From Nanobdellota archaeon (GTDB taxonomy: Archaea > Nanobdellota > Nanobdellia > Pacearchaeales > GW2011-AR1): a DNA stretch of 64,000 nucleotides. The translations under genes were made by a program, and so were the position numbers. Under the pieces are notes generated by a model. The model was not told the DNA's origin, made no database searches, and saw nothing but the letters and a program-made list of their open reading frames with translations. Location: assembly GCA_018815925.1 (NCBI GenBank), contig JAHIWS010000011.1, positions 51,753 to 115,752 of the forward strand, given 5' to 3'. Shown here in pieces: positions 6,001 to 59,785 of the stretch. Every line of letters begins with the position of its first letter. Within the stretch, counting starts at the first letter, position 1.

Positions 6001-7682
6001 TCAAATACAAGTGTATCTTGACCTCTTAGTTCTGGATTTTCTTTTAGATTTTCTTCTTCATAGATTTCTTTAAACATTTTAACAGAACTTCTTAGTTCAT
6101 CATCAAATGCACCTATCATTCCTATTTCATTAGTATTAAAAGTAATGTCTGTTCCGTTGTTTTTAAAAAGGATATCTAGTTTTTTCCAGCTTAGACAGCT
6201 TAGGTTATTTTCTGGATCTATTTCTTCACAAATTTTTAAATTATTTACAAATCCATATTTTGGAAGAGATATTTTTGTAGATTCTATGTTTTGTTTTTTA
6301 GAAAGAATAAGATCTGATTTTAGGCCTTTGATATTTAGTTGATTTCTTTTTATGAGGGTAAAATTTAGTTTTGTGAAATTTGAGATTGTTGTGTTTGTTG
6401 GAATTGTAATGTTAATTTCTGTAATATTTGTTGTTATGTTTTCTTCTGGAAGAGTTATATTTTCAACAGGTTCTGAGATTTCTTTTAATATTTTATATTT
6501 TATATTATCAATATTTATTTTTGAATTTTTAATTTCTATTTTTAAGGTGTAAGAGGTTTTGTTTAAATTTAAGTTAGAAATATTGCATGTTTCTTCACAA
6601 ATATCTTTAAAATTTATTGTTTTAGATTTTTCTTCTTTAGTGATATTCATGTTAGTTTCTTCCCCTTCTTCTAGAATATTTTCTTCTGGAATAGTGATAT
6701 TTGTTTCTGGCTTTGTGACATTAATTTCAGGTTCTGGTTCTTCTTTTATATTCGTTTCAATTCCCCCGGTAATATTTTCTTCTGGAATAGTGATGTTTGT
6801 TTTTGATTCTGTTAATTTTTCCTCTGTTTCAGAAGTAAGAGGCTCCTCTTCGGAAGGACTCGAATCTTCTTGTTGAGAAACCTCTTCTGAATTTATTTCT
6901 TCTGAACTTGATTCTTCTTCAGAAGAAGAAGGAGAATTCTCTTCGGAAGGACTCGAATCTTCTTGTTGAGAAACTCCTTCTTCACTTGTATCTTCTGAAT
7001 TTGATGGGCTTGAATCTGGAATATCCTCTACTGCTTTTCCGATAATTCCAAATAACCCTAATAATTTTTTGAAAAAACCAATATTTTCTGTATTTGCTAT
7101 TGCTTGACCTGTTATTCCTGCTGAAGTTTTTTTATTTTCTTTTAAGTTTTTGCTGTTTAGAATTAATAAATCATCTAAATAGATTTTAATCTGGCCTTTA
7201 TTTTCAAAAAAACCAGATAATTTTACAAAGTCAAGAGTTCCTGGGTTTTCAATTTGCCATTCATAGGTTGTTGATCCATTGAATTCTATATTAAAGTCTT
7301 GAGTAAATTCTTGTTGTTCAGTAAAAAAACCTACTATGATTGGTTGAATATAGAACATAGATGTTATTAAAATAATTATAAAAATAGCTGAGAAAAAAAG
7401 AACAGGTATTCTTCTTTTTAAGATTTCTTTTTTTTGTTTTTTTAAAAGTTCTTCACATTCTTTGGTATAATTACTATAGAAATCAATCCATTGTTTAAGG
7501 GTTTTGTTATCTGTTTTTTTATGGAGAATTTCTATGTATCTAGAATAAGGAATTTGTCTTTGAGTATATTTTTGATTAAGATTTTGAAAATAAGAAATTA
7601 ACTCTTTTTTCTTCTTCTGTGCAAAAGCTATTCTTTTTTGTAGTTCCACTGCTGTGGCTTTTGCTAGTCGAGTCCTTCCCAT
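1..7682 (-). CDS. Giant membrane-anchored surface protein, 3'-truncated by the window edge (>2,560 aa). Order: N-terminal cytoplasmic domain, TM anchor, acidic S/E/P linker with NITIPEENIT repeats, tentative DNRLRE-like beta-sandwich, Ig-like, LamG, parallel beta-helix, LamG, Ig-like, DUF2341, start of a third LamG
   Basis: Absent from the ORF track because it has no stop inside the window. The reverse-strand ATG at 7682-7680 opens a frame that I read without a stop down to position 3. The N-terminus MGRTRLAKATAVELQKRIAFAQKKKKELISYFQNLNQKYTQRQIPYSRYIEILHKK is about 91% identical to that of ORF 17474..22378. TM: IPVLFFSAIFIIILITSMFY (about 7340-7420). LamG motifs: GGAYVFDGVNDFIHL...WTHIIAVVDAGNSYKIYIDGK...GTIDGVRLWNRTLSEQQIHQLY (about 3750-4440), and a second copy at about 1290-1980. 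DUF2341-like: WWNPSWEKRKEINITG..LTNFPVYINV..DYDDLRFIS..LAYEIENY..HVWVKIPSI..ICLYYDN (about 420-715). NxT-rich beta-helix repeats at about 2050-3620. The + strand ORFs listed here are antisense shadows. Confidence 0.85.
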   Translation of the reverse strand, partial: MGRTRLAKATAVELQKRIAFAQKKKKELISYFQNLNQKYTQRQIPYSRYIEILHKKTDNKTLKQWIDFYSNYTKECEELLKKQKKEILKRRIPVLFFSAIFIIILITSMFYIQPIIVGFFTEQQEFTQDFNIEFNGSTTYEWQIENPGTLDFVKLSGFFENKGQIKIYLDDLLILNSKNLKENKKTSAGITGQAIANTENIGFFKKLLGLFGIIGKAVEDIPDSSPSNSEDTSEEGVSQQEDSSPSEENSPSSSEEESSSEEINSEEVSQQEDSSPSEEEPLTSETEEKLTESKTNITIPEENITGGIETNIKEEPEPEINVTKPETNITIPEENILEEGEETNMNITKEEKSKTINFKDICEETCNISNLNLNKTSYTLKIEIKNSKINIDNIKYKILKEISEPVENITLPEENITTNITEINITIPTNTTISNFTKLNFTLIKRNQLNIKGLKSDLILSKKQNIESTKISLPKYGFVNNLKICEEIDPENNLSCLSWKKLDILFKNNGTDITFNTNEIGMIGAFDDELRSSVKMFKEIYEEENLKENPELRGQDTLVFEKNKDEGIQIQSASPINYFQNNNYYHIPDLPLPGEITIDSEPNDSLQLYIELPEWAEIILSQDKQEAKVVDEKGNEIWFFEKPYLFSKDKRPYNEISLTNIELTEEEMLQLYPNGIINGKPEDDSGLTRENICKDCIIESLIKRSDFRVIDNKLFVEIPKGLEYPQVLVDDSDTGSANNKDSYIRKRLADNYKSYGQCSEMLAGKIIDTSYDYRPILEWTLSSGSGTITSIDYNMYRYAVNTYSGGSSATTRYYELHELVQSFTEGAESCGGACTTGAGWIQYDCSHSWKAAGGDYSATIVDETGVVGGTTADAWYIWTLRGDNADNSLDSLTWGDTIDFIVINPDSVAVAGNNLDWWASEQYTGTTYDPYLEITYSSNAAPDLPTPTLVSNDSTNTTSGDLNCSYILSDDNADKMNVTVRWYNNSILDSTINYNNSYANATFFSATLYKGNLSVGDVWNCSLRLFDGTDYSGWGNSSGLTILSSNTAPTHSNPAVTPLPNATITSNILCVNQSTSDTEGDAVTNIYNWLVDETPITLINMQFDTNESSTTADIIRDYSGLGNNGTLGNSTAGSEPIWTSEGKIGGAYVFDGVNDFIHLDKSSSLTNLTDLSIEMWINPRNITEEPHLFSNFYGGEIGHGDILLYQLDDDIGLFIENANNIETVNVLTLNTWTHIIAVVDAGNSYKIYIDGKLNKTDETDISPGPFLDNQNNFSIGSMRDGGGNFFNGTIDGVRLWNRTLSEQQIHQLYIEGLNNISYSTIKHSETTENENWTCQVTPNDATGDGLTKQNETFVTDCLNIGASTTLTSNSGDCYVFNQNDGTLDCAGYTIYGSGPTSTSLINSNHRTGITIKNCRIEDANLVIHFFDTNNSKIENTTIYNTTDISSGDVFAVAINFTNSYHNVVEDLNITEMFTESTFASGCYDGGLYGIYLKTSDNNTIKNSDFSNINGTKRIDGDGETGGCQASIRTIGDAIYSDSSDNLTIYNSTIKNSYEAIYTTASSFLNTTKNIIKNIEFIGINIQSTSTSSIIQENIINKTNIGIQISDSDEGTIKANIIESSSGQSISTSNANNLNIISNIISYGADDGIYILGSIGSGIEDNIIQHLSSTTNGGIYLDDISITSCKNNTISNISTNYALYINRESICSGLNITDTTQGIYFAGTSDNSKIYNSTISETINSTIIANSATNIIFYDVTFNKSTAQILGTATFFNYYYLRINVTDKNFDALESAVVNVTNVFGTAINKTTGADGLTPLFTLIEFNETSNGRVYFTNYNVIGNKSGYDENSTSVNLTSSLTQLLILPTSNTAPTQTAPIFFPSSPTSTQNFTCLNQSTADADSNSVTNIYNWLVDETPILLLNMPLDTNEDSTTTNLIRDYSTLNNNGTLGGGVAANVPRWTSSGKSGGAYVFDGIDDYILVNKSSSLNNTYNFTIEIWINTRTTSEGPYIFTNYDGGTVGNGDLLFYRNGQTIGSYVDGTSAYVVTGNFIATNTWYHLALVMDAGNSYKLYVNGELNQTDSSSIPSGPFFDQSNDFFIGRMESTNYWNGTIDNLRIWNKTLSASQIYQLYIDGLNNNTNSTIISDETSGNENWTCQVTPNDAFLDGLTKQNSTIIQIVNTIPNTPNPTIISADKSNLTSANLNCSYTLSDNDEDKMNVTVKWYNNSIESINIDYNNSYANSILFNAALDKGNLSGGDTWFCSLRLYDGTNYSIWGNSSNLTIIPPTIDLDLIYPLGNINSTQNEFFNVTLNVTCRNGNCGTINVSLDPDNWWNPSWEKRKEINITGVGSLTNFPVYINVTYDSEMQTDYDDLRFISGACNAGGSELAYEIENYTGTNAHVWVKIPSINAGNNQICLYYDNSGASSGENIAGVWAETYEAVWHFQNLNDSLGIHNLTKSASLDYIGGKIGRAFDWEGAASGDSLIWADADDSLDFTTEDLTIEFWIKMDNYVHGVNYIIKGLASTNNYQIFDWRATDEFSSDWGTTGNWHTHDCAGLDTEVWMH

Positions 7683-8992: not shown

Positions 8993-10240
8993 ATGAATAA
9001 AAAATATCTTTTAATTTTTGGAATCTTTTTAGTTGTTTCGCTCTTAGTTTTTGTTTCAGCTGAATCTGTAATCGCTGATGATGATTTTGAGAGTAGTTGG
9101 AGCGGTGGGTCTGGATGGATTAATGGATGGTGGCATGAAGGAGATTCCAAAATTTTAACAAGTGATTTTCCTTACGAGGGAGACAATCATTTAAGATTAA
9201 GAAGAAGTAATGGTTATGTTGATAGGTCTGTTGATTTATCTAGTTATTCTGATGCAAAAATTGGATTTTGGGTCAAAATTAAAAGTTTTGAGAGAAATGA
9301 TTTTTTAGATTTTTTAGTTAGTTCAAATGGGATAGATTGGAGTGTGTTAAGAACATTTACTCCTGTTGATTCAGATAGTTTGTATCATTATTATGAGTTT
9401 GATTTGACTCAGTATGGATTAACAAGCAATTTTTATATAGCTATTGATGCTGAAATGAGTGGAAGTGGAGATTATTTTTATTTAGATGATTTGAAAATTA
9501 TTACTAGTGAAAATGTTACTCCTCCTGAGCCTCCTCAGCCCCCAATACAGCCTAGTTGGCATATACAATATAACCCCCTTCCAGATCCTATTGCTGATGT
9601 TGCTTACTGGAATTTTGATTTATTTGATGTTCCTAGTGAGACAATTCAGAATTTAAAAGATCAGGGTGTTAAAGTTATGTGTTATTTTTCAGCTGGAAGT
9701 TATGAAGATTGGAGAACTGATGCTTTAGAGTTTCCAAATGAGTGTATAGGAGCAAGTAATGGTTGGCCTGGAGAAAATTGGATAAACACAAGATGTTCTG
9801 AAGTTAGAGAGATAATGGCTAATAGGATAGATTTAGGAATTACAAAAGGATGCGATGGTTTTGATCCTGATAATATGGATGCATATGGTAATGGTGGAGC
9901 AGGATTTGGATTAACTGAAGAAGATGCTATTGATTACTATAATTTTTTAGCAGATTATGCACATAGTAATGGAGCAGAGATTGGTTTGAAAAATGCACTT
10001 ACAATTATAGATGATGTTTTAGTTAATATGGATTGGGCTGTAAATGAACAGTGTTTTAAATATAATGAGTGTTTTTATTTAGAACCTGTTATAGCAGTTG
10101 GAAAGCCTGTTTTTCAGGTAGAATATGGTGGAACATCAAGAGCAAATAAAGTTTGTTCTAGGGCAAATGAACTAGGATTCACAACCCTCATCAAGAAGAC
10201 CTCTCTTAATGCTTTTGAGATTTCTTGCTTGGATTGGTAA
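8993..10240 (+). CDS. Secreted glycoside hydrolase, GH114-like (endo-alpha-1,4-polygalactosaminidase family TIM barrel), with an N-terminal jelly-roll/CBM-like domain
   Basis: Strong SD AAGGAGGT 5 nt before the ATG, then a signal peptide. The C-terminal half carries the family pattern as I recall it: FDLFD..I..LK..GVKVMCYFSAGSYEDWRTD...GWPGENWINTRCSEVREIM..RID....KGCDGFDPDNMDAY.N...GFGLTEEDAIDYYNFLADYAHSNG..IGLKNA...DWAVNEQCFKYNEC. Confidence 0.7.
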   Translation: MNKKYLLIFGIFLVVSLLVFVSAESVIADDDFESSWSGGSGWINGWWHEGDSKILTSDFPYEGDNHLRLRRSNGYVDRSVDLSSYSDAKIGFWVKIKSFERNDFLDFLVSSNGIDWSVLRTFTPVDSDSLYHYYEFDLTQYGLTSNFYIAIDAEMSGSGDYFYLDDLKIITSENVTPPEPPQPPIQPSWHIQYNPLPDPIADVAYWNFDLFDVPSETIQNLKDQGVKVMCYFSAGSYEDWRTDALEFPNECIGASNGWPGENWINTRCSEVREIMANRIDLGITKGCDGFDPDNMDAYGNGGAGFGLTEEDAIDYYNFLADYAHSNGAEIGLKNALTIIDDVLVNMDWAVNEQCFKYNECFYLEPVIAVGKPVFQVEYGGTSRANKVCSRANELGFTTLIKKTSLNAFEISCLDW

Positions 10241-10386
10241 ATATAAATTTTTCTTTTTATTATTTTTTTAATTTTTATTTAGAGTTAATAATTATTTGGT
10301 TTTTTGCTTTTGTTTTATACATATCTTTATTTATATTTATGTATAAATATGTTTATTACATAAGAATACTTCTAATTATGGTAATA

Positions 10387-10394
10387 TTTATAAA
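10387..10394 (+). promoter_or_regulatory. TATA box (TTTATAAA), 24 nt upstream of the ATG at 10418
   Basis: The spacing matches the other TATA-to-start distances in this window (24-25 nt). Confidence 0.45.
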
Positions 10395-10417
10395 AGAGAT
10401 TTGCTTTGTTTTTTATT

Positions 10418-13400
10418 ATGGGGAAAAAGAAAAAGGTGACTCTTAGTTTAGAAGAGAAAGATTATTCTAAGTTTCAGAAGTATTGTGAAGAAAATGCAAT
10501 GAATTTTTCTAAAAAAATAGATTTACTGGTTAAGGATTTTTTGAAGAGTAAGAAATTGTTGGGTTTTCTTTTGGTATTTTTATTTTTATTTTTTGTTTCT
10601 GCATCAACTTTTGTTGATAATTCTCAAAGTGAATTTGATAATGGATATTATTTTAATACTTTTTATAACAATTCTGGTTTTATTCAGCTTAATTTGAGTG
10701 AAGGATTTATAAATGGAAGTTTTGAATCGCAAATTTTTGGCTCTGGGCTTTCTCAATGGGATAGTCTTTCTTGGGTGCAAAGTGGACCTTATGGAATTGA
10801 CCTCCCTGATAATAATAGTGTTGAAACGGAATTTGTGCAAGGAGCAGATATGACTGGAAATTTACTTTTATTGCATTTAGATGAAAGTTCTGGATCCCAA
10901 ACCTTTGTTGATTCTTCTGGTAATGAAAAATCTGTTTCTTGTTCTTCTACATCTTGTCCTGCTGCAGGTGTTTCTGGTTTATTTACAAGTGCCCTAAATT
11001 TTGATGGAAATAATGATAGGCTTTTGGAAGCAGACCCAACAACAATAACTCCAACAGATGAAATAACTTTTGAAGCATGGATTAAATGGGATGGAGAATC
11101 TGGTGAGAATAATGATCTTCAAAACATTATAACTAATGGTGAATGGGATCGTGCTTTAAGAATAACTGAGCCAGATCATTGGATTGGGGGAAGCCAGGTT
11201 CTTTCTGTTTTTCAAATTGGTGGAGGTGGAGCAACAGAACTTTATTCAAATACCAAAATATCAACAGGAATGTGGTATCATATTGCAACAACTTATGATG
11301 GTAGCGAGCTTGCAATTTATATTAATGGAAAAAAAGATGTAAATGTTTCTGAATCTGGAGCAATTGTTTCTCCTTGTTGTGGGACTTTTATTGGGGCTGA
11401 GGAAAATTCAGTTAGTAATTTTGATGGAGTTATTGATGAAGTAGCAATATACAACCGATCTTTAACTGAAGAAGAAATTATGGGACATTATAGAAGGGGT
11501 ATGGCTCGTTTAAATCTTAGTGTTAGATCCTGTGATGATTTTTCTTGTGATGTAGAGAGCTTTATAGATATTGAAGACACTTCTCCCCAGAATTTATTTA
11601 TTTTAAATAATAGTTATTTTCAATATAAGATAGAGTTTTTAACGTTAAATGAAAGTGTTAGCCCCGAAGTTTACAACGTAACAATCACTTATACTTCTTT
11701 GGACAGCGATCTTCCAACTATTTCTATTTTGTCTCCTGTTACTCAGAATTATACAGATACAAATATTTTAGTAAATATTAGTGCAATAGACCCTAATCTT
11801 GCTTCAGTCTGGTTTTATGATGGGAATACAAATACAACTTATATAATTCCCACTTATCACCTTTTTAGTGAAGGATTTAATACAATCACAGCATATGCAA
11901 ATGATACTTCTGGAAATTTGAATTCAACTAGTGTTAGTTTTTGGGTTGATAGTATTTTACCCCAAATTAATATAATAGCTCCTGTAAATTTAAATTACAG
12001 CAATGCAACAATTCTTGTAAATCTTAGTGCTAGTGATTTGAATTTAGATTCTATTTGGTGGAACAATGGAACAACAAACTTTAGTTATTCAAATCCTATT
12101 TATCACCTTTTTAGTGAAGGATTTAATACAATCACAGCATATGCAAATGATACTTCTGGAAATTTGAATTCAACTAGTGTTAGTTTTTGGGTTGATACAA
12201 CTGGCCCCTCTATAAATTTGATTAGCCCAGAATCTAAAACTTATGGACAGAATATAGAGCTACCTTTGGACTTTGTAGTAAGTGATTCAAATGGTGTGTC
12301 AAGTTGTTGGTATAATTTGAATAGTGGATATAATGTTAGTCTTTTAAATTGTCAGAATACAACTTTTGATGCTAGTGATGGAAATTACATCTTAAACTTT
12401 TTTTCAAATGATACTCTTGGAAATTTGAATAAAAAAAATGTTAGTTTTTCTGTTTCAACAGAGATAGCTGTTGTGTTGGTTTCTCCATTTGATTCAGAAT
12501 GGTTAAATTATCAAAATGTGGAGTTGAATTATACAGTTAGTACTTTGGCTGATATTTATAATTGTAGTTTATATGGAAATTGGGGTGGAGAGTGGCATTT
12601 GAATCAGACAAATTTAAGTGCAGTTAATCAAAGTGGGGGGATTAATTCCTTTAATGTTTTTTTGCCAGATGGTAATTATTTATGGAATATCTATTGTGAT
12701 GGGTTTTTTGATTCTTTTGCATTCAGCAATTTTACTTTGAATATTGATACACAAGAGCCAGTATTAAATATGTATTATCCTTTGAGTAATAATCTACTTA
12801 AGAGAAATGTTTCCCTTCTTTTGAATTTTACTATTTTTGATGATAATTTGGAAGAGTGTTGGTACACTTTAGATAATGGACAGACAAATATTAGTTTAGG
12901 GTGTAGTGAGGGAGATAATTATTACTACTTTAGTTATTTGACTGGAAATTTTAATCTTTCTGTTTATGCGAGTGATTTTGCCGGAAATAGTGCTGATACT
13001 ATAACAAGTAATTTAACAATAATGTATGATGGAATTTCCCCTAATGTTAGTTTATTAGATCCCCAGGGGGTTAAAACTAGTGCAAGTAATATTTTTTTAA
13101 ATTTTCTTGCAAGTGATAATGCTGATTTAAGAGAAGAAATGCTGTGTTGGTTTAGTGTTGTTTATGCATCTACAGGAGGTTCTGTCCCTGGACTAGAAAG
13201 TTTGTTTTTGAATAATTGCCAAGATACTATCTTTAATCTGATAGGAGATGGAAATTATATTTTAAATCTTGTTGTAAGGGACAAGACTGGGAATGCTGAA
13301 TTGCTTAACACTACTTTTTCAGTTTCTACAGGAACTTCAATTCCTCCTGGCGGGGGAAGTTCTGGTGGAGGAAGTTCTTCTGGTGGCAGTTTTGTTGTGT

Positions 13401-14281
13401 TAGGAAAAACAAAATTGGAAGTTGAAAGTTTATTTAATTCAATTTTATTTCCTGGAGACAATAAAAAAATTAGTTGGAATGTTAAAAATACTGGAACAAA
13501 TTTTCTTAATACTTGTAAATTTAAAGGAAATGGAGAATTTTCTTCTTGGATTTCTTCTTCTGAATCTTTAAGAAATCTTGCTGCAGGAGAAGAATATGAT
13601 TTTATTTTTGATTTGAATGTTCCTGACGATGTTGAAACTGGGTTATATAATCTTGAAATTAAATTAGATTGCAAGGAAATTAATAAAACCACAGGATTTG
13701 TAGTGGAAGTTGTAGATAAAGAAATAGGTTTTGAATTAATTAAAGTTGAAAGAGAGAAAAAAGATCAGATTAAAATTCTTTATTCATTACAAGAGCTTTC
13801 TAATTTAGATCAAAAAGTTGAACTTCAATTTTTATTATTTGGTTCTAATGGTGAAAAAGTAGCAGAACTTGAAGAATTTAAGGAATTACTTACAAATTCT
13901 GAACAAGAATTTGAATCTTTTATACTTATTGATAGTTTTCTTGAAGGAGAATTAAATTTATTAATTAATATAAATTCTGAAACTTATTCAGGTTTTGTTC
14001 AGGAAAATCTTGTTTTAGGTGCTCCAGCAACAGGTCTTCCTATTCTAGGAGATTTAGGAACAAGAGATAATATTGTTAGTGTTATTATGGTGGTTTTATT
14101 CTTGATTTTTGCTTTTTTTGTAGTTAGAAAAATTTTTGGACATAAAAAAGAAATTAAAAGAAGAAAAAGTGTCAAAGTAGTAAAGAAGGGGCAAGGAAGT
14201 AGAATTATTTTTATTAAGAAAAAAAAGAAAAAGGGTAAAATTTTTTCTATTAAAAGAAAAAAGAAAAAGTTTCCTCTTTAA
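10418..14281 (+). CDS. Giant bitopic surface protein (1,287 aa). Order: RHH-like N-terminus, signal-anchor TM, LamG domain, about 8 Ig-like adhesin repeats, G/S linker, CARDB/NEW3-like domain, C-terminal TM with a Lys-rich tail
   Basis: The track start at 10406 is a TTG; the first ATG is at 10418 (MGKKKKVTLSLEEKDYSKFQKYCEENAMNFSKKIDLLVKDFL). TM1: LLGFLLVFLFLFFVSAS. LamG: ALNFDGNNDRLL...ITFEAWIKW...WYHIATTYDGSELAIYINGK...FDGVIDEVAIYNRSLTEEEI. Repeats are of the type ISILSP..NYT..NILVN.SA.D.NL.S.W.....N......LFSEGFNTITAYANDTSGNLNSTSVSFWVD. TM2: IVSVIMVVLFLIFAFFVV. Confidence 0.85.
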   Translation: MGKKKKVTLSLEEKDYSKFQKYCEENAMNFSKKIDLLVKDFLKSKKLLGFLLVFLFLFFVSASTFVDNSQSEFDNGYYFNTFYNNSGFIQLNLSEGFINGSFESQIFGSGLSQWDSLSWVQSGPYGIDLPDNNSVETEFVQGADMTGNLLLLHLDESSGSQTFVDSSGNEKSVSCSSTSCPAAGVSGLFTSALNFDGNNDRLLEADPTTITPTDEITFEAWIKWDGESGENNDLQNIITNGEWDRALRITEPDHWIGGSQVLSVFQIGGGGATELYSNTKISTGMWYHIATTYDGSELAIYINGKKDVNVSESGAIVSPCCGTFIGAEENSVSNFDGVIDEVAIYNRSLTEEEIMGHYRRGMARLNLSVRSCDDFSCDVESFIDIEDTSPQNLFILNNSYFQYKIEFLTLNESVSPEVYNVTITYTSLDSDLPTISILSPVTQNYTDTNILVNISAIDPNLASVWFYDGNTNTTYIIPTYHLFSEGFNTITAYANDTSGNLNSTSVSFWVDSILPQINIIAPVNLNYSNATILVNLSASDLNLDSIWWNNGTTNFSYSNPIYHLFSEGFNTITAYANDTSGNLNSTSVSFWVDTTGPSINLISPESKTYGQNIELPLDFVVSDSNGVSSCWYNLNSGYNVSLLNCQNTTFDASDGNYILNFFSNDTLGNLNKKNVSFSVSTEIAVVLVSPFDSEWLNYQNVELNYTVSTLADIYNCSLYGNWGGEWHLNQTNLSAVNQSGGINSFNVFLPDGNYLWNIYCDGFFDSFAFSNFTLNIDTQEPVLNMYYPLSNNLLKRNVSLLLNFTIFDDNLEECWYTLDNGQTNISLGCSEGDNYYYFSYLTGNFNLSVYASDFAGNSADTITSNLTIMYDGISPNVSLLDPQGVKTSASNIFLNFLASDNADLREEMLCWFSVVYASTGGSVPGLESLFLNNCQDTIFNLIGDGNYILNLVVRDKTGNAELLNTTFSVSTGTSIPPGGGSSGGGSSSGGSFVVLGKTKLEVESLFNSILFPGDNKKISWNVKNTGTNFLNTCKFKGNGEFSSWISSSESLRNLAAGEEYDFIFDLNVPDDVETGLYNLEIKLDCKEINKTTGFVVEVVDKEIGFELIKVEREKKDQIKILYSLQELSNLDQKVELQFLLFGSNGEKVAELEEFKELLTNSEQEFESFILIDSFLEGELNLLININSETYSGFVQENLVLGAPATGLPILGDLGTRDNIVSVIMVVLFLIFAFFVVRKIFGHKKEIKRRKSVKVVKKGQGSRIIFIKKKKKKGKIFSIKRKKKKFPL
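11854..12197 (+). repeat. Two exact 98-nt direct copies (11854-11951 and 12100-12197), 246 nt apart, inside the adhesin repeat region
   Basis: Both copies read ttatcacctttttagtgaaggatttaatacaatcacagcatatgcaaatgatacttctggaaatttgaattcaactagtgttagtttttgggttgata. They encode (Y)HLFSEGFNTITAYANDTSGNLNSTSVSFWVD. Confidence 0.9.
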
Positions 14282-17473: not shown

Positions 17474-20400
17474 TTAGTTTATTTTATTTATTTTTTTCAT
17501 GGCTTTTGAGTAAATTGTCCAAATATTTCTTTGATCTCTGTTTAGTATTTTTGCAATTTCACCATAATTTAAATCTTGTTTTCTTAAATAAATAGTTAAT
17601 GATTCAAGAATTGTTAGTTTTCTATTTTTAAATATTGAGATTGGAATGAAAATATTTGATTTTTTAATTTTTAATGTTGCTTTTTGTTTTTGTTTTGATT
17701 TATTATAGGATGCCCAAATTGTTCTTTGATCTCTGTTTAGTAATTTAGCTATTTCAGAATAAGGTAGGTTTAGTTTTTCTTTTAAATATTTTGTTAGGGC
17801 TTCTAATGCTCCTAATTTGTTTATGAAGATTGTTCCTGGAACTGTTGGTTCTCCTATGATTTTGTTTTTGATTTTTTTCTTTTTTCTTCTAAAACTTATT
17901 GCTACGAGGAGTATTCTAATGGTCCAAACACCTTTTCCTTCTGTTGAGTAGGCTTGAGTAGAAATATCAGAAATGGCGTTTATACAAAAGTACAATTCTT
18001 CTTGAGCTGTTCCATCGTTTTTAGTGAAGTTTCCTTTTGGAAGTATTGCTCCTGTTACATTTACGAGTGTGAAATTACTCATAAAAGAGCCTGCACACTC
18101 ATCTAGGTTTGGAAATGTTCCTCCTGAACTTAATGCTACTGAGAAATTTTCTGCATATATAGCCTCAGTAAGATATGTTTCACCCCTTAGATTTGATGCA
18201 TTTATACTTATGTTTCCAGTGATATATCCTGATTGTTTGTTTCCTGTGTTGTTTATTATTATAGGGTCATTTTCAGATGTTTGGTTTATAGAGTTAGGAC
18301 TTACAATCCAAGACAAGTTTACAGGGCCTATCTCAAATCCTGTTATTGATGCAATTGAGAAATTTGTTGAAGTATTTGTTGCTTCATTTGTATTATTGTC
18401 TCTTATATATGCTTTAATTCCCCAGCTTCCAGAAGCATCCCACCACCACATTGTCACATTGCAAGTGAAATTTGCAGAGTTTTCTCCATTGTCTTCAAAT
18501 CTAGTGCATGTTGAATTAAATCTTGTTTCTTCACTACCCCTTATAAAACTTATATTTGCTGTGCTTCCGTTTAAATCACTTACCCCATTTGCATCATAAA
18601 CTGAAAAATTAATAATTACTGTTGTTGCTAATGGTGCTGAATTAAAAGTAGTGGCTAGGGTTTTCATCACTTCTGTGTTGTTGTAGACTTGTTGTATTTC
18701 TGGAGCAGAATCTCCTGTTATTGTGAAATTTATTGCTGTTCTTTTTTCATTTCCTGCAGAATCATTTGCCCAGAGTGTGAAATTGTGTTGATCATTTGCC
18801 CAGATTATTGTTGTGATGTTCTGGCCACAATTTATTGAAAAGTTTTTTAAGAAAGTGTCATTAGACCACCAGCAGTGTGCTAATCCTAAATTATCTGATA
18901 TAGTATAATTTACATCTGTTGTGTTTTTTGTGTAGTGGGTGTTGTTTAAAGGATATACAATTGCCAGACTAGGAGCTGTTAGATCAATTATAAATTTCAC
19001 TGAAGTTGCATTTATGTTTCCAGCAGAGTCATTATTCCAAATAGTTACATTGTGTCGTCCTTCTGGCCATATTAGGGTGGTTATGTTTGTCCCGCAAGCA
19101 ATTGTTTTATTTATCAAATAAGTATCATTACTATACCAACAAGAAATAGAATCAGCTCCTGCAGTATAGTTTATGTTTAATAGTGTATCTGTCCAGTTTG
19201 TGTTGTTTGTTGGAAAAGTAATTGTTATGTTTGGAGCTACTGTGTCTATTGTAAAAGTTATTGAACTGGAATTTTCATTACCTGCTGTATCATTACTCCA
19301 AATAGTTACACTATGAATTCCTTCACTCCAAGTTACTCCTGTTATATTTGTACTACAATTAGCTAGACTTGTATTTACAGAATATGAATCATTAGACCAC
19401 CAACAAGATTCTATTCCAGTTCCAGAATCACTTGTAGTATAATTTACATTTAGTTGGTTGTTGCTTGAATTTGTTGCATTTGTAGCTGGATATAAAATTG
19501 ATAAATCAGGTGGTGTGATGTCTTCTACAATTCCTGTTCCAAGGGTAATGTTTCCTTGTTCCATTGTAAACCATGCTGCAGGGTTGCTATTGTGGCTATC
19601 ACAATCATTTGCTCCATCTTGTTCACACTGTCTTACATCAGGAGTAGCTGTGTTAACATCTCTTGCCCAAGGAGATTTAGGGTCCTGGCCTCCACTATTA
19701 CCATTCATACTCACCATTAATCTTGGAGTGGTATAACTTGCAGTCCAAGTAATTGCCCCCCATGTGGGTCCATTTACAGATACAGACCCTGATTGGAAAT
19801 TTACTTGTTCAGAAAAATTAACATTAGCAACATCAATTGCTACCCAACCAATATTTTCGTTAGGCATCCCTGAGGTACATGCATCACCTGTTCCTTGATG
19901 AAAACAAGATTTGAAAATTGCTTGAGTGGTGGTAATACTGTATACCCAATTTCTTACAGCCATATTATTTTCTGTTTGGGTGTAGCTTTGGGACTGGACC
20001 CATACTAATGGAGCATTTGAAAATGTTTTTCCAAAGGTTAGAGTAGTAGCTGCATTATCTGTTGAATCAACAGTACCATTTCCTATTGCAATCCAACTTG
20101 GCAAATCTGCATCTCTGTCAAAAACAAAATAATGTACTGTTTCTTCAATAAATGTGGGATCACAAGTAGCAGCACCAGCATCTTGACAAAGAGTTATATT
20201 AAAATGTGTTGTATTTATCATGCTTATTGTAGGAATAATTTGATTTTCATCATCACCAGTACCATCCTCATTTTCTGTAACAGGACTTGCAATTACTATT
20301 GGGGGGGAAGAATAAGTATTTTTAAATTTTATTAAGTGCCATTCAAAATTAGAAATGTTTATTTCTCCTGTTTCTCCAAGAATTACATAAGCATCATTAT

Positions 20401-22378
20401 GTGCATAGGCTTTTACCCCTCCAAAATCAAATTCTAAATGGTGTTTTCCTTGAGTTAGGACTTTTGAGATTTCAAATCCCATTTGGTTTTCACAAGAATA
20501 ATTTGAAATAAATATAGAATTATTTATCCATTCATAATCTAATTTATCTGGACCACATTTTATTTCAAGGAATTTTAGTTCATTTTCTTCATTTTCATTA
20601 CTCCAAGTTGTTCCATTAATAATAGTGATTGTTAGATCTGCTTGTCCAATTGTTGTGAATTCAACTGTCCAGTTTCCACCAACAGTTGGATAAGATTGTA
20701 TATTTAAGATTATAATTTCTAGTTCATAAGTTTGATTAGATAAGTGAGGAACAATCCATTCAATATAATCAATTAATTCATTTGAATTATTATCAAATGT
20801 TTGTATTTGTACAGGCTCTTTTGAACCATTGATTATGTGGTAAAGATGAATTGCTTGTTTAGGAGTTTCTTTTAATAGTTGAGTTGAAGCTAAAATATTT
20901 GTATAGCCTAATTCATTTGGATCAGATATTGTTATTATTTTTCCATTAGGAGTTATTTCTTCAAATGATATTGGTCCAGGTGTTTTATATTCTATTTCAT
21001 ATTCTGTTGCATTTTCGTCAATTGTAATCTCTATTGCATCTGGTTGTTCTTCTGTAAGAATTGCTCTTCCTGTCAAGGCTCCCAAAATTCTTTTAAAAAA
21101 TCTTGTTATGAAATTTCCTGTTGGTTGGGTTTTACTAGAACTTATAACTGCTCCTGTGATTAGTGATCTGGAAGTTATGTCTTCTTCTTGTGTTTCTTTA
21201 ATTAATGTAGAAACTTCTTCTAATTGTTCACTTACTTCTCTTAGTTGTTCTTGTAGTTCTTCAAGTTGCTTTTGTAATTCTTCAATTTTTTCTGAATTTG
21301 TTGTTGAAATGTTTTCTCCTGTTATTTTAGAAGAAGGAGCTTCTTCTGTACCAAGCTCTTCGCTTGGGAGCTCATCTAGGCTTGGCTGAGCTGGAGAAGG
21401 GGTCAAGTCTTCTTCTGCTGAAGAAACTCCTGTGTTTTGTTCTGAATATATTTTTGTTAATTTTTTTATACTGATGTTTTGAGCATTTTTTGGAAGTTTG
21501 ATTTTGATTGCTTTTGGATCTTCTAAAGAAATTTTTTTTGTCCATTTAACTGGTTGGCCTAAAACAGCTTGATACTGGATTGTTTCAACAGAAGCATTTT
21601 CAATTTCTGTTGCATTGATTGTGGTATTATTTCTTGGAATAGTAATATTTGTTTCAGGAATTGTTATATTTTCAATTGGTTTTGTTATATTTTCCTCAGG
21701 AGGAATTGTTATATTTATTTCTGGTTCTTCCTCTGTTATATTTATTTCAATTTCTTTCTCTTCCTCAATTTCCTTTGTTATATTTTCTTCTGGAATAGTG
21801 ATATTTGTTTCTGGCTCTGGAAGAGGTTCCTCTATTTCTTCTGGTTCTTGAGAAGGGGTCAAGTCTTCTTCTGGTTCTATAGGAACCTCTTCTTCTAATT
21901 CTAGTTGAATATTTTCGGGTATTTCTTCTTCAATAATTTCTTCTGGTGGATCTTCCTGTTTTGGTTCAGGTTGTTCAACAGGAGCTTCAGGTTGTTTTTC
22001 AGCTACTTCTTCTTCAACAATAAATCCTGTATATTTTAAGTCTACATAATAAAGAGCTAAAACAAATAAACCAAGTAAAACAAAACTAAAAAGTATTGTG
22101 GTTATTTTGTTTTGAATTATTTTTGTTTTTTGTTTTTTTAGGAGTTGTTTACACTTTTTTATGTAAGAATTATAAAAGTCTACCCATTGCTTTATTGTTT
22201 TTCCATTTGTTTTTTTATGAAGAATTTCTATGTATCTAGAATAAGGAATTTGTCTTTGAGTATATTTTTGATTAAGATTTTGAAAATAAGAAATTAACTC
22301 TTTTTTCTTTTTTTCTGCGAAAGCTATTTTTTTTTGTAGTTCCACTGTTGTGGCTTTTGCTAATTGACCCCTTCCCAT
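17474..22378 (-). CDS. Giant surface protein (1,634 aa). Order: conserved N-terminal cytoplasmic domain, TM anchor, acidic E/P linker with NITIP repeats, coiled coil, beta-rich modules, 3 Ig-like adhesin repeats, tip domain, short hydrophobic/KKKK segment, two C-terminal HTH modules
   Basis: Single uninterrupted ORF. TM: ILFSFVLLGLFVLALYYV. Coiled coil: EELQKQLEELQEQLREVSEQLEEVS. Three repeats of about 72 aa (..ESCWWSNDSY..ITGVTWSEGIHSVTIWSNDTAGNENSSSITFTIDTVAP..). The last 128 aa hold two copies of L..LE.L..YL......L.Y.EIAK.LNRDQR.IW..Y.K. Confidence 0.85.
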   Translation of the reverse strand: MGRGQLAKATTVELQKKIAFAEKKKKELISYFQNLNQKYTQRQIPYSRYIEILHKKTNGKTIKQWVDFYNSYIKKCKQLLKKQKTKIIQNKITTILFSFVLLGLFVLALYYVDLKYTGFIVEEEVAEKQPEAPVEQPEPKQEDPPEEIIEEEIPENIQLELEEEVPIEPEEDLTPSQEPEEIEEPLPEPETNITIPEENITKEIEEEKEIEINITEEEPEINITIPPEENITKPIENITIPETNITIPRNNTTINATEIENASVETIQYQAVLGQPVKWTKKISLEDPKAIKIKLPKNAQNISIKKLTKIYSEQNTGVSSAEEDLTPSPAQPSLDELPSEELGTEEAPSSKITGENISTTNSEKIEELQKQLEELQEQLREVSEQLEEVSTLIKETQEEDITSRSLITGAVISSSKTQPTGNFITRFFKRILGALTGRAILTEEQPDAIEITIDENATEYEIEYKTPGPISFEEITPNGKIITISDPNELGYTNILASTQLLKETPKQAIHLYHIINGSKEPVQIQTFDNNSNELIDYIEWIVPHLSNQTYELEIIILNIQSYPTVGGNWTVEFTTIGQADLTITIINGTTWSNENEENELKFLEIKCGPDKLDYEWINNSIFISNYSCENQMGFEISKVLTQGKHHLEFDFGGVKAYAHNDAYVILGETGEINISNFEWHLIKFKNTYSSPPIVIASPVTENEDGTGDDENQIIPTISMINTTHFNITLCQDAGAATCDPTFIEETVHYFVFDRDADLPSWIAIGNGTVDSTDNAATTLTFGKTFSNAPLVWVQSQSYTQTENNMAVRNWVYSITTTQAIFKSCFHQGTGDACTSGMPNENIGWVAIDVANVNFSEQVNFQSGSVSVNGPTWGAITWTASYTTPRLMVSMNGNSGGQDPKSPWARDVNTATPDVRQCEQDGANDCDSHNSNPAAWFTMEQGNITLGTGIVEDITPPDLSILYPATNATNSSNNQLNVNYTTSDSGTGIESCWWSNDSYSVNTSLANCSTNITGVTWSEGIHSVTIWSNDTAGNENSSSITFTIDTVAPNITITFPTNNTNWTDTLLNINYTAGADSISCWYSNDTYLINKTIACGTNITTLIWPEGRHNVTIWNNDSAGNINATSVKFIIDLTAPSLAIVYPLNNTHYTKNTTDVNYTISDNLGLAHCWWSNDTFLKNFSINCGQNITTIIWANDQHNFTLWANDSAGNEKRTAINFTITGDSAPEIQQVYNNTEVMKTLATTFNSAPLATTVIINFSVYDANGVSDLNGSTANISFIRGSEETRFNSTCTRFEDNGENSANFTCNVTMWWWDASGSWGIKAYIRDNNTNEATNTSTNFSIASITGFEIGPVNLSWIVSPNSINQTSENDPIIINNTGNKQSGYITGNISINASNLRGETYLTEAIYAENFSVALSSGGTFPNLDECAGSFMSNFTLVNVTGAILPKGNFTKNDGTAQEELYFCINAISDISTQAYSTEGKGVWTIRILLVAISFRRKKKKIKNKIIGEPTVPGTIFINKLGALEALTKYLKEKLNLPYSEIAKLLNRDQRTIWASYNKSKQKQKATLKIKKSNIFIPISIFKNRKLTILESLTIYLRKQDLNYGEIAKILNRDQRNIWTIYSKAMKKINKIN

Positions 22379-25354: not shown

Positions 25355-25507
25355 TGTCTCTGAGGGGATTTTAACCCCCGACCTCAGCCTAACTCAGAAT
25401 GAACAAGTAACTCAACACTGAAATTTTCTATAAAGAAAATTTCGTGGATGAGCTTGAGCAAGTTCAAACTCATGAGAGCTGCGCTCTAAACCCTGAGCTA
25501 CAGAGAC
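25355..25507 (-). tRNA. tRNA with anticodon CAT (elongator Met or Ile2) carrying an 80-nt intron (25391-25470) at canonical position 37/38
   Basis: Hand fold. Acceptor GTCTCTG/CAGAGAC plus A, D arm GCTC-AGGGTTTA-GAGC, anticodon stem CAGCT/GGCTG, loop CTCATG|intron|A, variable AGGTC, T arm GGGGG-TTAAAAT-CCCCT (non-canonical A56). It is not initiator-like: G1-C72 and no GGG/CCC in the anticodon stem. TATA tttttaaata lies about 20-29 nt upstream. Confidence 0.75.
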
Positions 25508-52473: not shown

Positions 52474-52519
52474 ATTCTCTTACCACAAAATTTATAAATT
52501 ATAAATTATAACTTTTTAT

Positions 52520-52741
52520 ATGAAAACTATAGCACTTAAAGATAGAACATTTAATCTAATAAAGGATTTAAAAGAAAAACATAAAATGAAATCTTTTGAT
52601 AAGTTGATAATTGATTTAATTGTAAAAGAAGAGAAGGTTCCAAAAATAGAAGAAATGTTTGGTATCTTAAAGGGAAAAACAAAAGGTTTTACAAGAAAAG
52701 ATAGGGAAGAGATTTGGGGAGATCCTAATAGGGATTTTTAG
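52520..52741 (+). CDS. vapB: VapB-like antitoxin (RHH-type pattern)
   Basis: 73 aa, ending 1 nt before the PIN gene. KTIALKDRTFNLIKDLKEKHKMKSFDKLIIDLI fits a strand-helix-helix pattern. Confidence 0.6.
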   Translation: MKTIALKDRTFNLIKDLKEKHKMKSFDKLIIDLIVKEEKVPKIEEMFGILKGKTKGFTRKDREEIWGDPNRDF

Positions 52742-52742
52742 A

Positions 52743-53120
52743 ATGAAAATAATTTTTGATACTTTTGCTTGGATAGAGTTTTTTGAAGGAACAAAAAAAG
52801 GAAAAATTGTTAAAGATTTTTTGTGTGAAAATGAAATTATAACCCCCTTAATTGTTTTTCTAGAGCTTAGTTATAAGGCTGACAAGGAGCATTGGAATTT
52901 TAGAGAAATAGTGAATTATATTAAGCATAATTCAGAGATTATTGGTATGAATGAAAATTTTATTTTTTCTTTTGGAAAATTGTATAATAAAGTTAAGAAA
53001 AATATTAGAGGAATTAGCATCGTTGATGTTGTTCTTTTACATACTGCTATGCTTAAGAATGCAAAAGTTTTAACAGGAGATAAACATTTTAAGGGGTTTA
53101 AAGAAGCCATGATTTTGTAA
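52743..53120 (+). CDS. vapC: PIN-domain toxin VapC
   Basis: MKIIFDTFAWIEFF (first acidic residue), E at LELSYK, D at SIVDVVLLHTA, LTGDKHF. Confidence 0.8.
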   Translation: MKIIFDTFAWIEFFEGTKKGKIVKDFLCENEIITPLIVFLELSYKADKEHWNFREIVNYIKHNSEIIGMNENFIFSFGKLYNKVKKNIRGISIVDVVLLHTAMLKNAKVLTGDKHFKGFKEAMIL

Positions 53121-59656: not shown

Positions 59657-59785
59657 CGTCCCGAGCTGGATTTGAACCAGCGACCTATCGGTTCCTGCAG
59701 AATCAAAAGATTCTATAGTAAGTTTGTAAACCAAAGTTCTTAATCTTAACAGCCGATCGCTCTAACCGGACTGAGCTATCGGGAC
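59657..59785 (-). tRNA. tRNA-Asn (anticodon GTT) with a 54-nt intron (59693-59746) at position 37/38
   Basis: Hand fold. Acceptor GTCCCGA/TCGGGAC plus G, D arm GCTC-AGTCCGGTTA-GAGC, anticodon stem ATCGG/CCGAT, loop CTGTTA|intron|A, variable AGGTC, T arm GCTGG-TTCAAAT-CCAGC. TATA TTTAAATA (59809-59816) lies 24 nt upstream. Confidence 0.85.

Follow-up and report, generated by a model that had tools for sequence, protein, structure and literature searches.

The 64,000-nucleotide stretch of DNA analyzed here (the window) comes from a Nanobdellota archaeon (assembly GCA_018815925.1, contig JAHIWS010000011.1) and contains a gene for a giant adhesin-like surface protein whose N-terminus resembles a ribbon-helix-helix (RHH) repressor. 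We propose, with a probability of about one half, that codons 1–46 of this gene encode a functional RHH DNA-binding module, a member of a DPANN-wide family of small autoregulators, which is fused to the signal peptide of the adhesin and feeds back on the transcription of its own gene. The gene runs in one frame of 1,287 codons on the forward strand, from ATG 10418 to the stop codon at 14279–14281. It encodes, in order, the RHH module, a hydrophobic segment, an ectodomain of LamG- and Ig-like domains, a C-terminal transmembrane (TM) helix and a Lys-rich tail, without a stop codon between them. Residues 1–46, MGKKKKVTLSLEEKDYSKFQKYCEENAMNFSKKIDLLVKDFLKSKK, are directly followed by residues 47–63, LLGFLLVFLFLFFVSAS. 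An original prediction, made from the letters alone, had described this order of elements, with the module on the cytoplasmic side of the hydrophobic segment, and both the sequence and the Pfam matches agree with it. The ectodomain matches Laminin_G_3 (E = 9.8e-23) and Big_13 (E = 3e-6), with weaker matches to other Ig-like families, and carries 40 N-x-S/T sequons. The fusion of a regulator with an export signal suggests that the making or exporting of the adhesin is tied to the control of its gene.

The in-frame junction between the module and the adhesin is real DNA, since two independent contigs match the window exactly. These Logan contigs, assembled from two runs of different samples and studies at depths of 14 and 17, cover positions 10200–11200 with 0 differences and 0 gaps. 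The identical junction in both runs rules out an assembly error as the origin of the fusion. The public sequencing runs that contain this region are groundwater metagenomes. In one of the runs (X2), a low-depth contig (2.8x versus 17x) links position 10345 to position 10463 and lacks 117 nt, among them the TATA box and codons 1–15. The contig is probably a graph artifact in AT-rich sequence (the G+C content of the window is 29%); it could also be a minor deletion variant.

Identity of the N-terminal module and its family

The RHH identity of the module is well supported by profile comparisons and is unconfirmed by structure. The window segment matches the PHROG family 3180, annotated as an 'Arc-like repressor', with an E value of 3.7e-5 (residues 4–46 on positions 5–47 of a profile of 50), and PHROG 582 with an E value of 1.2e-3. 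In Pfam, the 46-residue segment alone gives two subthreshold matches, to DUF6364 (E = 0.0057) and to the RHH part of ParG (E = 0.01). We scanned 56 family members one by one against Pfam, PHROGs and NCBIfam. Two PHROG families of 'Arc-like repressors' were matched by 52 and 45 of them, respectively (best relative, 1.7e-9), and 53 reached E ≤ 1 on DUF6364 (best value, 1.9e-7). Apart from DUF6364, the Pfam families that recur are of the RHH type (RepB-RCR_reg, CcdA, ParG, RHH_9, BrnA, RHH_1, RHH_5, RelB and others), and the NCBIfam matches are RHH proteins (PRK11675, RelB/DinJ, RepA and ORF56). Almost all secondary matches in Pfam, NCBIfam and the PDB likewise fall on RHH families. When the family profile was compared with the PDB, the best match was SvtR (2kel), an archaeal-virus RHH regulator, followed in one search by E73 (4aai). 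A glycogen-synthase fusion partner that recurred in the PDB searches was set aside as spurious. The N-terminal RHH-type module anticipated by the original prediction is thus borne out at the level of profile matches.

The family is large and its conservation is concentrated at a few positions. A word-based search returned five standalone homologues of 45–64 aa with the signature MGKKKVTLS...YCEENA...LSKKIE, and the module profile, run against 1.84 billion representative sequences, retrieved 428 proteins at E ≤ 1e-3, of which 94 reach E ≤ 1e-10. All 90 aligned family sequences share Ser31 at the predicted start of helix B, and Cys23 and Glu35 are conserved in at least 90% of them. Cys23 (positions 10484–10486 of the window) is a single cysteine in helix A (YCEEN), which is unusual for a small cytoplasmic RHH protein. 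Two modules in tandem occur naturally in three metagenomic proteins of 88–108 aa (P0006, P0007 and P0075). These are probably single-chain RHH pseudo-dimers, as one would expect if the domain functions as a dimer.

The true relatives of the module appear to form a separate family (Pfam DUF6364) and not to be toxin–antitoxin (TA) antitoxins. According to the original prediction, the module aligns position by position with a VapB-like antitoxin encoded elsewhere in the window; the similarity proved weak, at 31% over 35 aa with a pairwise E value of 0.014. The module does resemble type II antitoxins (VapB, RelB, CcdA) in being a small RHH-like first gene that overlaps the next gene and in its weak profile matches to CcdA, RelB and BrnA. 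In contrast to those antitoxins, its partner is a surface or membrane protein gene or another non-toxin gene, and it has no C-terminal toxin-binding extension. No toxin family was seen next to the module in the split loci, where neighbors were classed from their N-terminal sequences only. The antitoxin reading was rejected on these grounds, together with the fusion of the window module to a LamG/Ig surface protein and the weak similarity to VapB.

The module usually occurs as a standalone protein of 44–65 aa, whose gene heads small operons in DPANN archaea. Our survey of GTDB species representatives covered 75 archaeal loci (Woesearchaeota, Pacearchaeota, Nanoarchaeota and a few others), in which no other gene lies between the promoter and the module gene. 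We also examined 154 proteins, namely the best 150 of the representative search and the first matches. The module is fused at 16 of the 75 loci, where the tails reach about 1,000–1,870 aa when complete and all proteins start at the module Met. In 22 of the 154 proteins, the module leads on to a hydrophobic segment followed by an ectodomain; 10 of these proteins are 1,007–1,465 aa long. Overall, we count 37 distinct fused proteins, whose ectodomains have heads of three kinds, and the recurrence of the architecture in related genomes, which the original prediction had raised, is therefore established. The window itself holds a single copy of the module.

At the unfused loci, the next gene overlaps the stop codon of the module gene by 4–20 nt and begins with a signal peptide or TM segment in about half of the cases. 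Among these split partners are adhesins from the family of the window protein, with 1,422 aa at locus L042 and 1,804 aa at L057. A recurrent partner, a protein of 255–316 aa, combines a signal peptide and DSDLDGIxD (thrombospondin-type-3-like) repeats with a TM segment and a basic tail (L006, L039, L041, L043, L049, L058, L059 and L061). Other split partners are cytoplasmic, for example restriction-modification-like genes.

Pairwise comparison shows that no other part of the fused proteins is as well conserved as the module. Its identity to the window module is 67% in relative P0062, against 55% overall, 78% in P0051, against 41% overall, and 72% in P0022, against 32% overall; at L008, it is 84%, against 34% for the rest of the protein. 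We conclude that the fusion is real and selected. The closest relative, P0001 (57 aa), lies on a 650-nt contig (L001; ERZ23498987 scaffold_387232) that switches from AT-rich archaeal to GC-rich sequence inside the module gene. This contig is probably a chimeric assembly, which would make the divergent tail of P0001 artefactual and uninformative.

Promoter geometry and the operator-like motif

ATG 10418 is the likely start codon of the gene, as the original prediction had assumed, because a TATA-like box lies 31 nt upstream, at the modal distance of the family. The sequence TTTAWA starts 29–31 nt before the module ATG at 34 of 74 family loci; for fused loci, the count is 12 of 17. Random positions lack this peak. 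A TATA box at the archaeal distance of 29–31 nt would place the start of transcription at or next to the ATG and would give a leaderless or near-leaderless mRNA. A search for RNA runs with which to map this start returned none. T-tracts follow the glycoside hydrolase family 114 (GH114) gene located upstream.

A 16-nt palindrome, TAYTTCYATRGAARTA, is found directly 5' of the TATA boxes of the family genes, with centers 40–90 nt before the ATG. With up to 2 mismatches allowed, the 160-nt regions preceding module genes, 12.8 kb altogether, contain 48 sites, whereas the other 702 kb of these loci contain 4, an enrichment of about 660-fold. Of the 16 fused loci, 10 have the palindrome at ≤2 mismatches and 14 at ≤3. 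The motif follows the type of module. Modules of the KVTLS type carry the palindrome at 33 of 52 loci and an ATATR-N5-ATATR repeat at none of the 52, whereas modules of the TVALS type (K-T-V-A-L-S) lack the palindrome at all 14 loci and have ATATR-N5-ATATR between the TATA box and the ATG at 12 of 15. This covariation of the motif with the sequence of the β-strand is expected of an RHH protein that reads DNA through its strand, and it argues for an autoregulator.

The repeat between the TATA box and the ATG marks a K-T-V/F-A-L-S subfamily (L048, L055, L062, L063, L065, L066, L070, L073 and L076–L079). Members of this subfamily often precede cytoplasmic genes, some of them similar to restriction-modification subunits, and they may be controller-like regulators.

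The hydrophobic segment, the proposed mechanism and its alternatives

The hydrophobic segment that follows the module looks like a cleavable Sec signal peptide. A class-1 Sec signal peptide has a positive n-region, an h-region of about 7–15 hydrophobic residues and a c-region with small residues at –3 and –1. The window protein reads KSKK / LLGFLLVFLFLFFV / SAS↓T (the arrow marks the predicted cut), which follows this n-, h- and c-region pattern. Its n-region is atypical in having 46 residues, predicted to be folded, compared with the usual few. In the fused proteins, a Lys-rich linker of 0–10 residues is followed by 12–16 strongly hydrophobic residues, often with a polar Q/N break, and 30 of the 37 have small residues at –3 and –1 (e.g., VSAS↓T, FGSA↓V, VNA↓A and VFA↓D). 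The median length of the uncharged run is 18 aa in the 37 fused proteins; for the split partners, which have ordinary signal peptides, it is 17 aa (p = 0.68). The position of the segment is equivalent to that of the signal peptides of unfused relatives, and the predicted mature ends line up, with ...SAS↓TFVDNSQSEFDNG in the window protein and ...AFA↓SQFIDDTQSEFDSG in the split adhesin of L042. From this layout, length and position, the RHH module is probably an extended, folded n-region and not the head of a permanent anchor. The term 'signal anchor' used in the original prediction is therefore not retained.

We propose that the two cistrons of the usual arrangement have merged into one open reading frame in the window and in many relatives, so that the Lys-rich C-terminus of the regulator would double as the positive n-region of the Sec signal peptide of the adhesin. 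A leaderless mRNA would be translated from ATG 10418, and the RHH module, made first, would remain cytoplasmic while the h-region (residues 47–60) directs the chain to the Sec translocon. Signal peptidase would cut after SAS63. The glycoprotein of about 1,220 aa would then be kept at the surface by its C-terminal helix, and a 63-residue fragment consisting of the RHH module and the h-region would stay on the inner face of the membrane. The RHH module, either still tethered or after normal clearance of the signal peptide, would dimerize and bind the operator repeats beside its own TATA box. In this way, the synthesis or export of the adhesin would feed back on its transcription, with one regulator per adhesin. 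Fused and overlapping two-gene forms would give the same one-to-one coupling, which would explain their interconversion. The dimerization, DNA binding, cleavage and release in this scheme, as well as the sign of the regulation, are what we infer from the sequences. A more specific version, in which the signal peptide is itself a transcription factor, is put forward only tentatively. Each export event would then free one repressor subunit, and transcription would be metered by export rather than by synthesis.

The main rival to this scheme is an uncleaved signal anchor. The protein would then be a permanent transmembrane regulator of the ToxR/CadC type, and contacts of the ectodomain, for example with a host cell, would control the pairing of RHH modules and hence transcription. 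The succession of a DNA-binding domain, a hydrophobic segment and a large extracellular part fits such a regulator, the class is reported to be widespread in bacteria and archaea (PMC10269533), and the dimerization that an RHH requires could be controlled by the ectodomain. Some fused proteins also have uncharged runs of 24–28 aa. However, the lengths of the hydrophobic segments are indistinguishable from those of the ordinary signal peptides of unfused partners, and the polar break and the small residues at –1 and –3 are kept in most fused proteins. The segment also sits where the split relatives have their cleaved signal peptide, and the window protein already has a C-terminal anchor. We therefore consider a permanently anchored regulator unlikely.

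Several observations weigh against the autoregulator proposal itself. The window module scores 17.5–18.8 bits on PF19891 (DUF6364), below the Pfam gathering threshold of 27.3, and it is therefore a divergent relative of DUF6364 and not a curated member. The PDB matches of the family profile are marginal (E = 0.017–0.025). An AlphaFold2 monomer model of residues 1–76, built from a 56-sequence alignment, has a predicted local distance difference test score (pLDDT) of 66, a low confidence, and shows one long helix in the region expected for helices A and B, with no strand. In the model of the tandem protein P0006, used as a stand-in for the dimer, the pLDDT is 56, likewise low, and helices appear at the A and B positions in both halves without a β-ribbon. 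A Foldseek search of the PDB with the structure model gave no meaningful match. At the DNA level, the region upstream of the window gene lacks a canonical palindrome at ≤2 mismatches and contains only a split, degenerate copy. Finally, an unfused adhesin may also be made from an internal start at the junction, and standalone paralogues, which are possible in these genomes, might carry out the regulation; several genomes have two or more module genes.

A lesser rival is evolutionary read-through. A stop codon between coupled cistrons is easily lost, and the fused RHH could be inert, or the adhesin could be made mostly from an internal start, with standalone paralogues acting as the regulators. 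Split and fused forms do stand side by side among close relatives, and some genomes hold further module genes. At the junction, a Shine-Dalgarno-like motif with an ATG is found in a few loci (L026 and L017), and the window has TTG-TTG, with the two codons at 10556 and 10559. Most fused proteins, however, have no Met at the junction. The fusion is found in 37 distinct proteins and across 16 or more species-level genomes, conservation in these proteins is highest in the module, and the operator motif is retained in the fused loci at the frequencies given above. Read-through without function is, in our judgment, improbable.

A role in export in place of DNA binding has less in its favor and appears very improbable. 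In this case, the module would be a folded N-terminal extension that modulates the targeting or translocation of a very large substrate, or a docking or chaperone element. Large autotransporters have an extended signal peptide region, and the module does accompany very large secreted proteins and lies directly before the h-region. Conversely, some of the genes that the module gene leads are cytoplasmic, for example the restriction-modification-like ones; the module matches repressor families; and its gene-specific upstream repeats covary with its strand sequence. That the segment is no RHH at all, but a compositionally biased, Lys-rich n-region with a chance resemblance, is hardly credible given the 428 profile homologues (94 at E ≤ 1e-10), the agreement of RHH-family matches across three libraries, the CopG-like size of the standalone 45-residue versions and the invariant Ser31 at the N-terminus of helix B, even though the AlphaFold models lack a confident β-ribbon and the single-sequence Pfam and PDB matches are marginal.

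Relation to known systems, neighboring features and significance

The autoregulator proposed here can be compared with several known systems. CopG is comparable in size to the standalone 45-residue modules. The small RHH repressors in general (Arc and Mnt of phage P22, plasmid CopG/RepA, SvtR and E73 of archaeal viruses and ORF56 of pRN1) share with the family the size of about 45 aa, the basic N-terminus, the alternating strand and the two helices, as predicted for the family, with a Ser at the start of helix B, and matching sequence profiles. Both are encoded by the first gene of an operon that they presumably control, with palindromic or tandem repeats by the promoter. Unlike these repressors, the window module is not a free protein; it forms the first 46 residues of what is predicted to be a 1,287-aa exported glycoprotein. 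It also has its own family signature, KKVTLS...YCEENA...LSKKIE, in which the Cys is nearly invariant.

Transmembrane transcription regulators such as ToxR, CadC and TcpP (PMC10269533) have a similar layout, with an N-terminal cytoplasmic DNA-binding domain, one hydrophobic segment and an extracytoplasmic part. Judged by its predicted domains, the window protein falls under the operational definition used in that survey, a DNA-binding domain and a TM region in one polypeptide. The survey finds these regulators to be widespread in bacteria and archaea and mostly of the helix-turn-helix (HTH) type, and RHH domains are not mentioned in its main text (PMC10269533). In contrast to the ToxR-type proteins, the DNA-binding domain of the window protein is an RHH and not a winged HTH, its hydrophobic segment looks cleavable, and its outer part is an adhesin-like array of more than 1,100 aa with a C-terminal anchor of its own instead of a compact sensor domain.

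A third comparison concerns long signal peptides with functions of their own. Rem/Env of mouse mammary tumor virus (MMTV) has a functional signal peptide of 98 aa (PMC8725593), and the N-terminus of iRhom2 is released by signal peptidase (PMC7618786). In both, as proposed for the window protein, a region before the h-region has a nucleic-acid or gene-regulatory function and is freed by signal peptidase. Those systems are eukaryotic or retroviral, act at the endoplasmic reticulum and are experimentally proven, whereas here an archaeal RHH module is concerned, whose cleavage and release are predicted. If the signal peptide does act as a transcription factor, it would be an archaeal counterpart of the MMTV signal peptide. 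Our literature search, incomplete in coverage, found no paper on DUF6364 and no description of RHH–signal-peptide fusions in DPANN archaea, so that the novelty of such fusions is unproven.

The coordinates of the elements of the gene and of other features of the window are collected in the table.

Table. Positions of the elements of the fused gene and of neighboring features in the window
Feature	Position	Strand	Basis or remark
Operator-like copy: TACTTC (10367–10372) followed by TAATTATGGTAATA, i.e., TACTTC-TAAT-TATGGTAATA	10367..10386		Differs from the consensus TAYTTCYATRGAARTA by a 4-nt insertion and one mismatch
TATA-like box TTTATAAAA	10387..10395	+	First T 31 nt 5' of ATG 10418
RHH (Arc/CopG-like, DUF6364-related) module, aa 1–46; predicted layout: basic N-terminus, strand KKVTLSL, helix A, turn with S31, helix B, Lys-rich end (KSKK)	10418..10555	+	Family matches, residue conservation
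Signal-peptide h- and c-regions, aa 47–63 (LLGFLLVFLFLFFV + SAS)	10556..10606	+	Predicted signal peptidase I site after S63 (SAS↓TF)
Ectodomain, aa 64–1218: LamG-type jelly roll (aa 198–354), several Ig-like repeats, CARDB/NEW3-like domain (aa ~1000–1084), Gly/Ser linker	10607..14071	+	Pfam matches
C-terminal TM helix, aa 1219–1236 (IVSVIMVVLFLIFAFFVV)	14072..14125	+	C-terminal TM also present in fused relatives
Cytoplasmic Lys/Arg-rich tail, 51 aa with 25 K/R, and stop codon	14126..14281	+	
GH114 glycoside hydrolase with ordinary signal peptide	8993–10240	+	E = 2e-75
1,634-aa surface protein	17474–22378	–	Ends in a TM helix and a cytoplasmic tail (~125 aa, about 17474–17860) with two Sigma70 region-4-like HTH repeats
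Nearly identical ~90-aa N-terminal cytoplasmic heads (MGRGQLAKATTVELQKKIAFA...) of two giant genes, before a TM segment	22109–22378 and 7410–7682	–	
VapB-like antitoxin, then PIN-domain VapC	52508–53120	+	PF02697 VAPB_antitox, E = 3e-4; VapC, E = 5.6e-12; ordinary type II TA pair
Two tRNA genes, 153 and 129 nt	25355–25507 and 59657–59785	–	Found by Rfam, missed by ARAGORN

The gene that starts at position 22378 is of interest in the same context. Its C-terminal tail, scanned alone, matches Sigma70_r4_2 (PF08281) with 31.1 bits, against a Pfam threshold of 25.7. The HTH repeats of this tail thus point to a second, independent giant surface protein in the window with a cytoplasmic module of the DNA-binding type, here at the C-terminus. 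The original prediction had extended the idea of cytoplasmic DNA-binding modules to other giant surface proteins of the region. This holds for the C-terminal tail just described and is not supported for the N-terminal heads (85–91 aa) of the genes at 7682 and 22378, in which an HTH-like segment had been suspected: the heads have no Pfam HTH match, and they do not resemble the HTH tail significantly (E = 0.087). In the GH114 protein, an N-terminal DDDFESSWSGGSGW segment resembles, by eye, the 'DDFECGGFSCGSGW' and 'DGFESG' heads of fused adhesins. The two long tRNA genes presumably encode archaeal tRNAs with introns.

Contact with host cells is indispensable to DPANN archaea, and their giant, rapidly evolving surface proteins are the foremost candidates for mediating it. 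To our knowledge, essentially nothing is known about how these proteins are regulated. The present analysis supplies a conserved family of regulators, a predicted operator, TAYTTCYATRGAARTA, and a physical link between regulator and adhesin, in the form of either a fused polypeptide or an overlapping cistron, which makes the question of their regulation experimentally testable. If the RHH module is released from the signal peptide, it would represent a new coupling of secretion and transcription in prokaryotes. A module that stays tethered would extend the transmembrane transcription regulators to RHH domains and to ectodomains as large as an adhesin. The uncharacterized DUF6364-like proteins also gain a likely function, that of promoter-proximal autoregulators.

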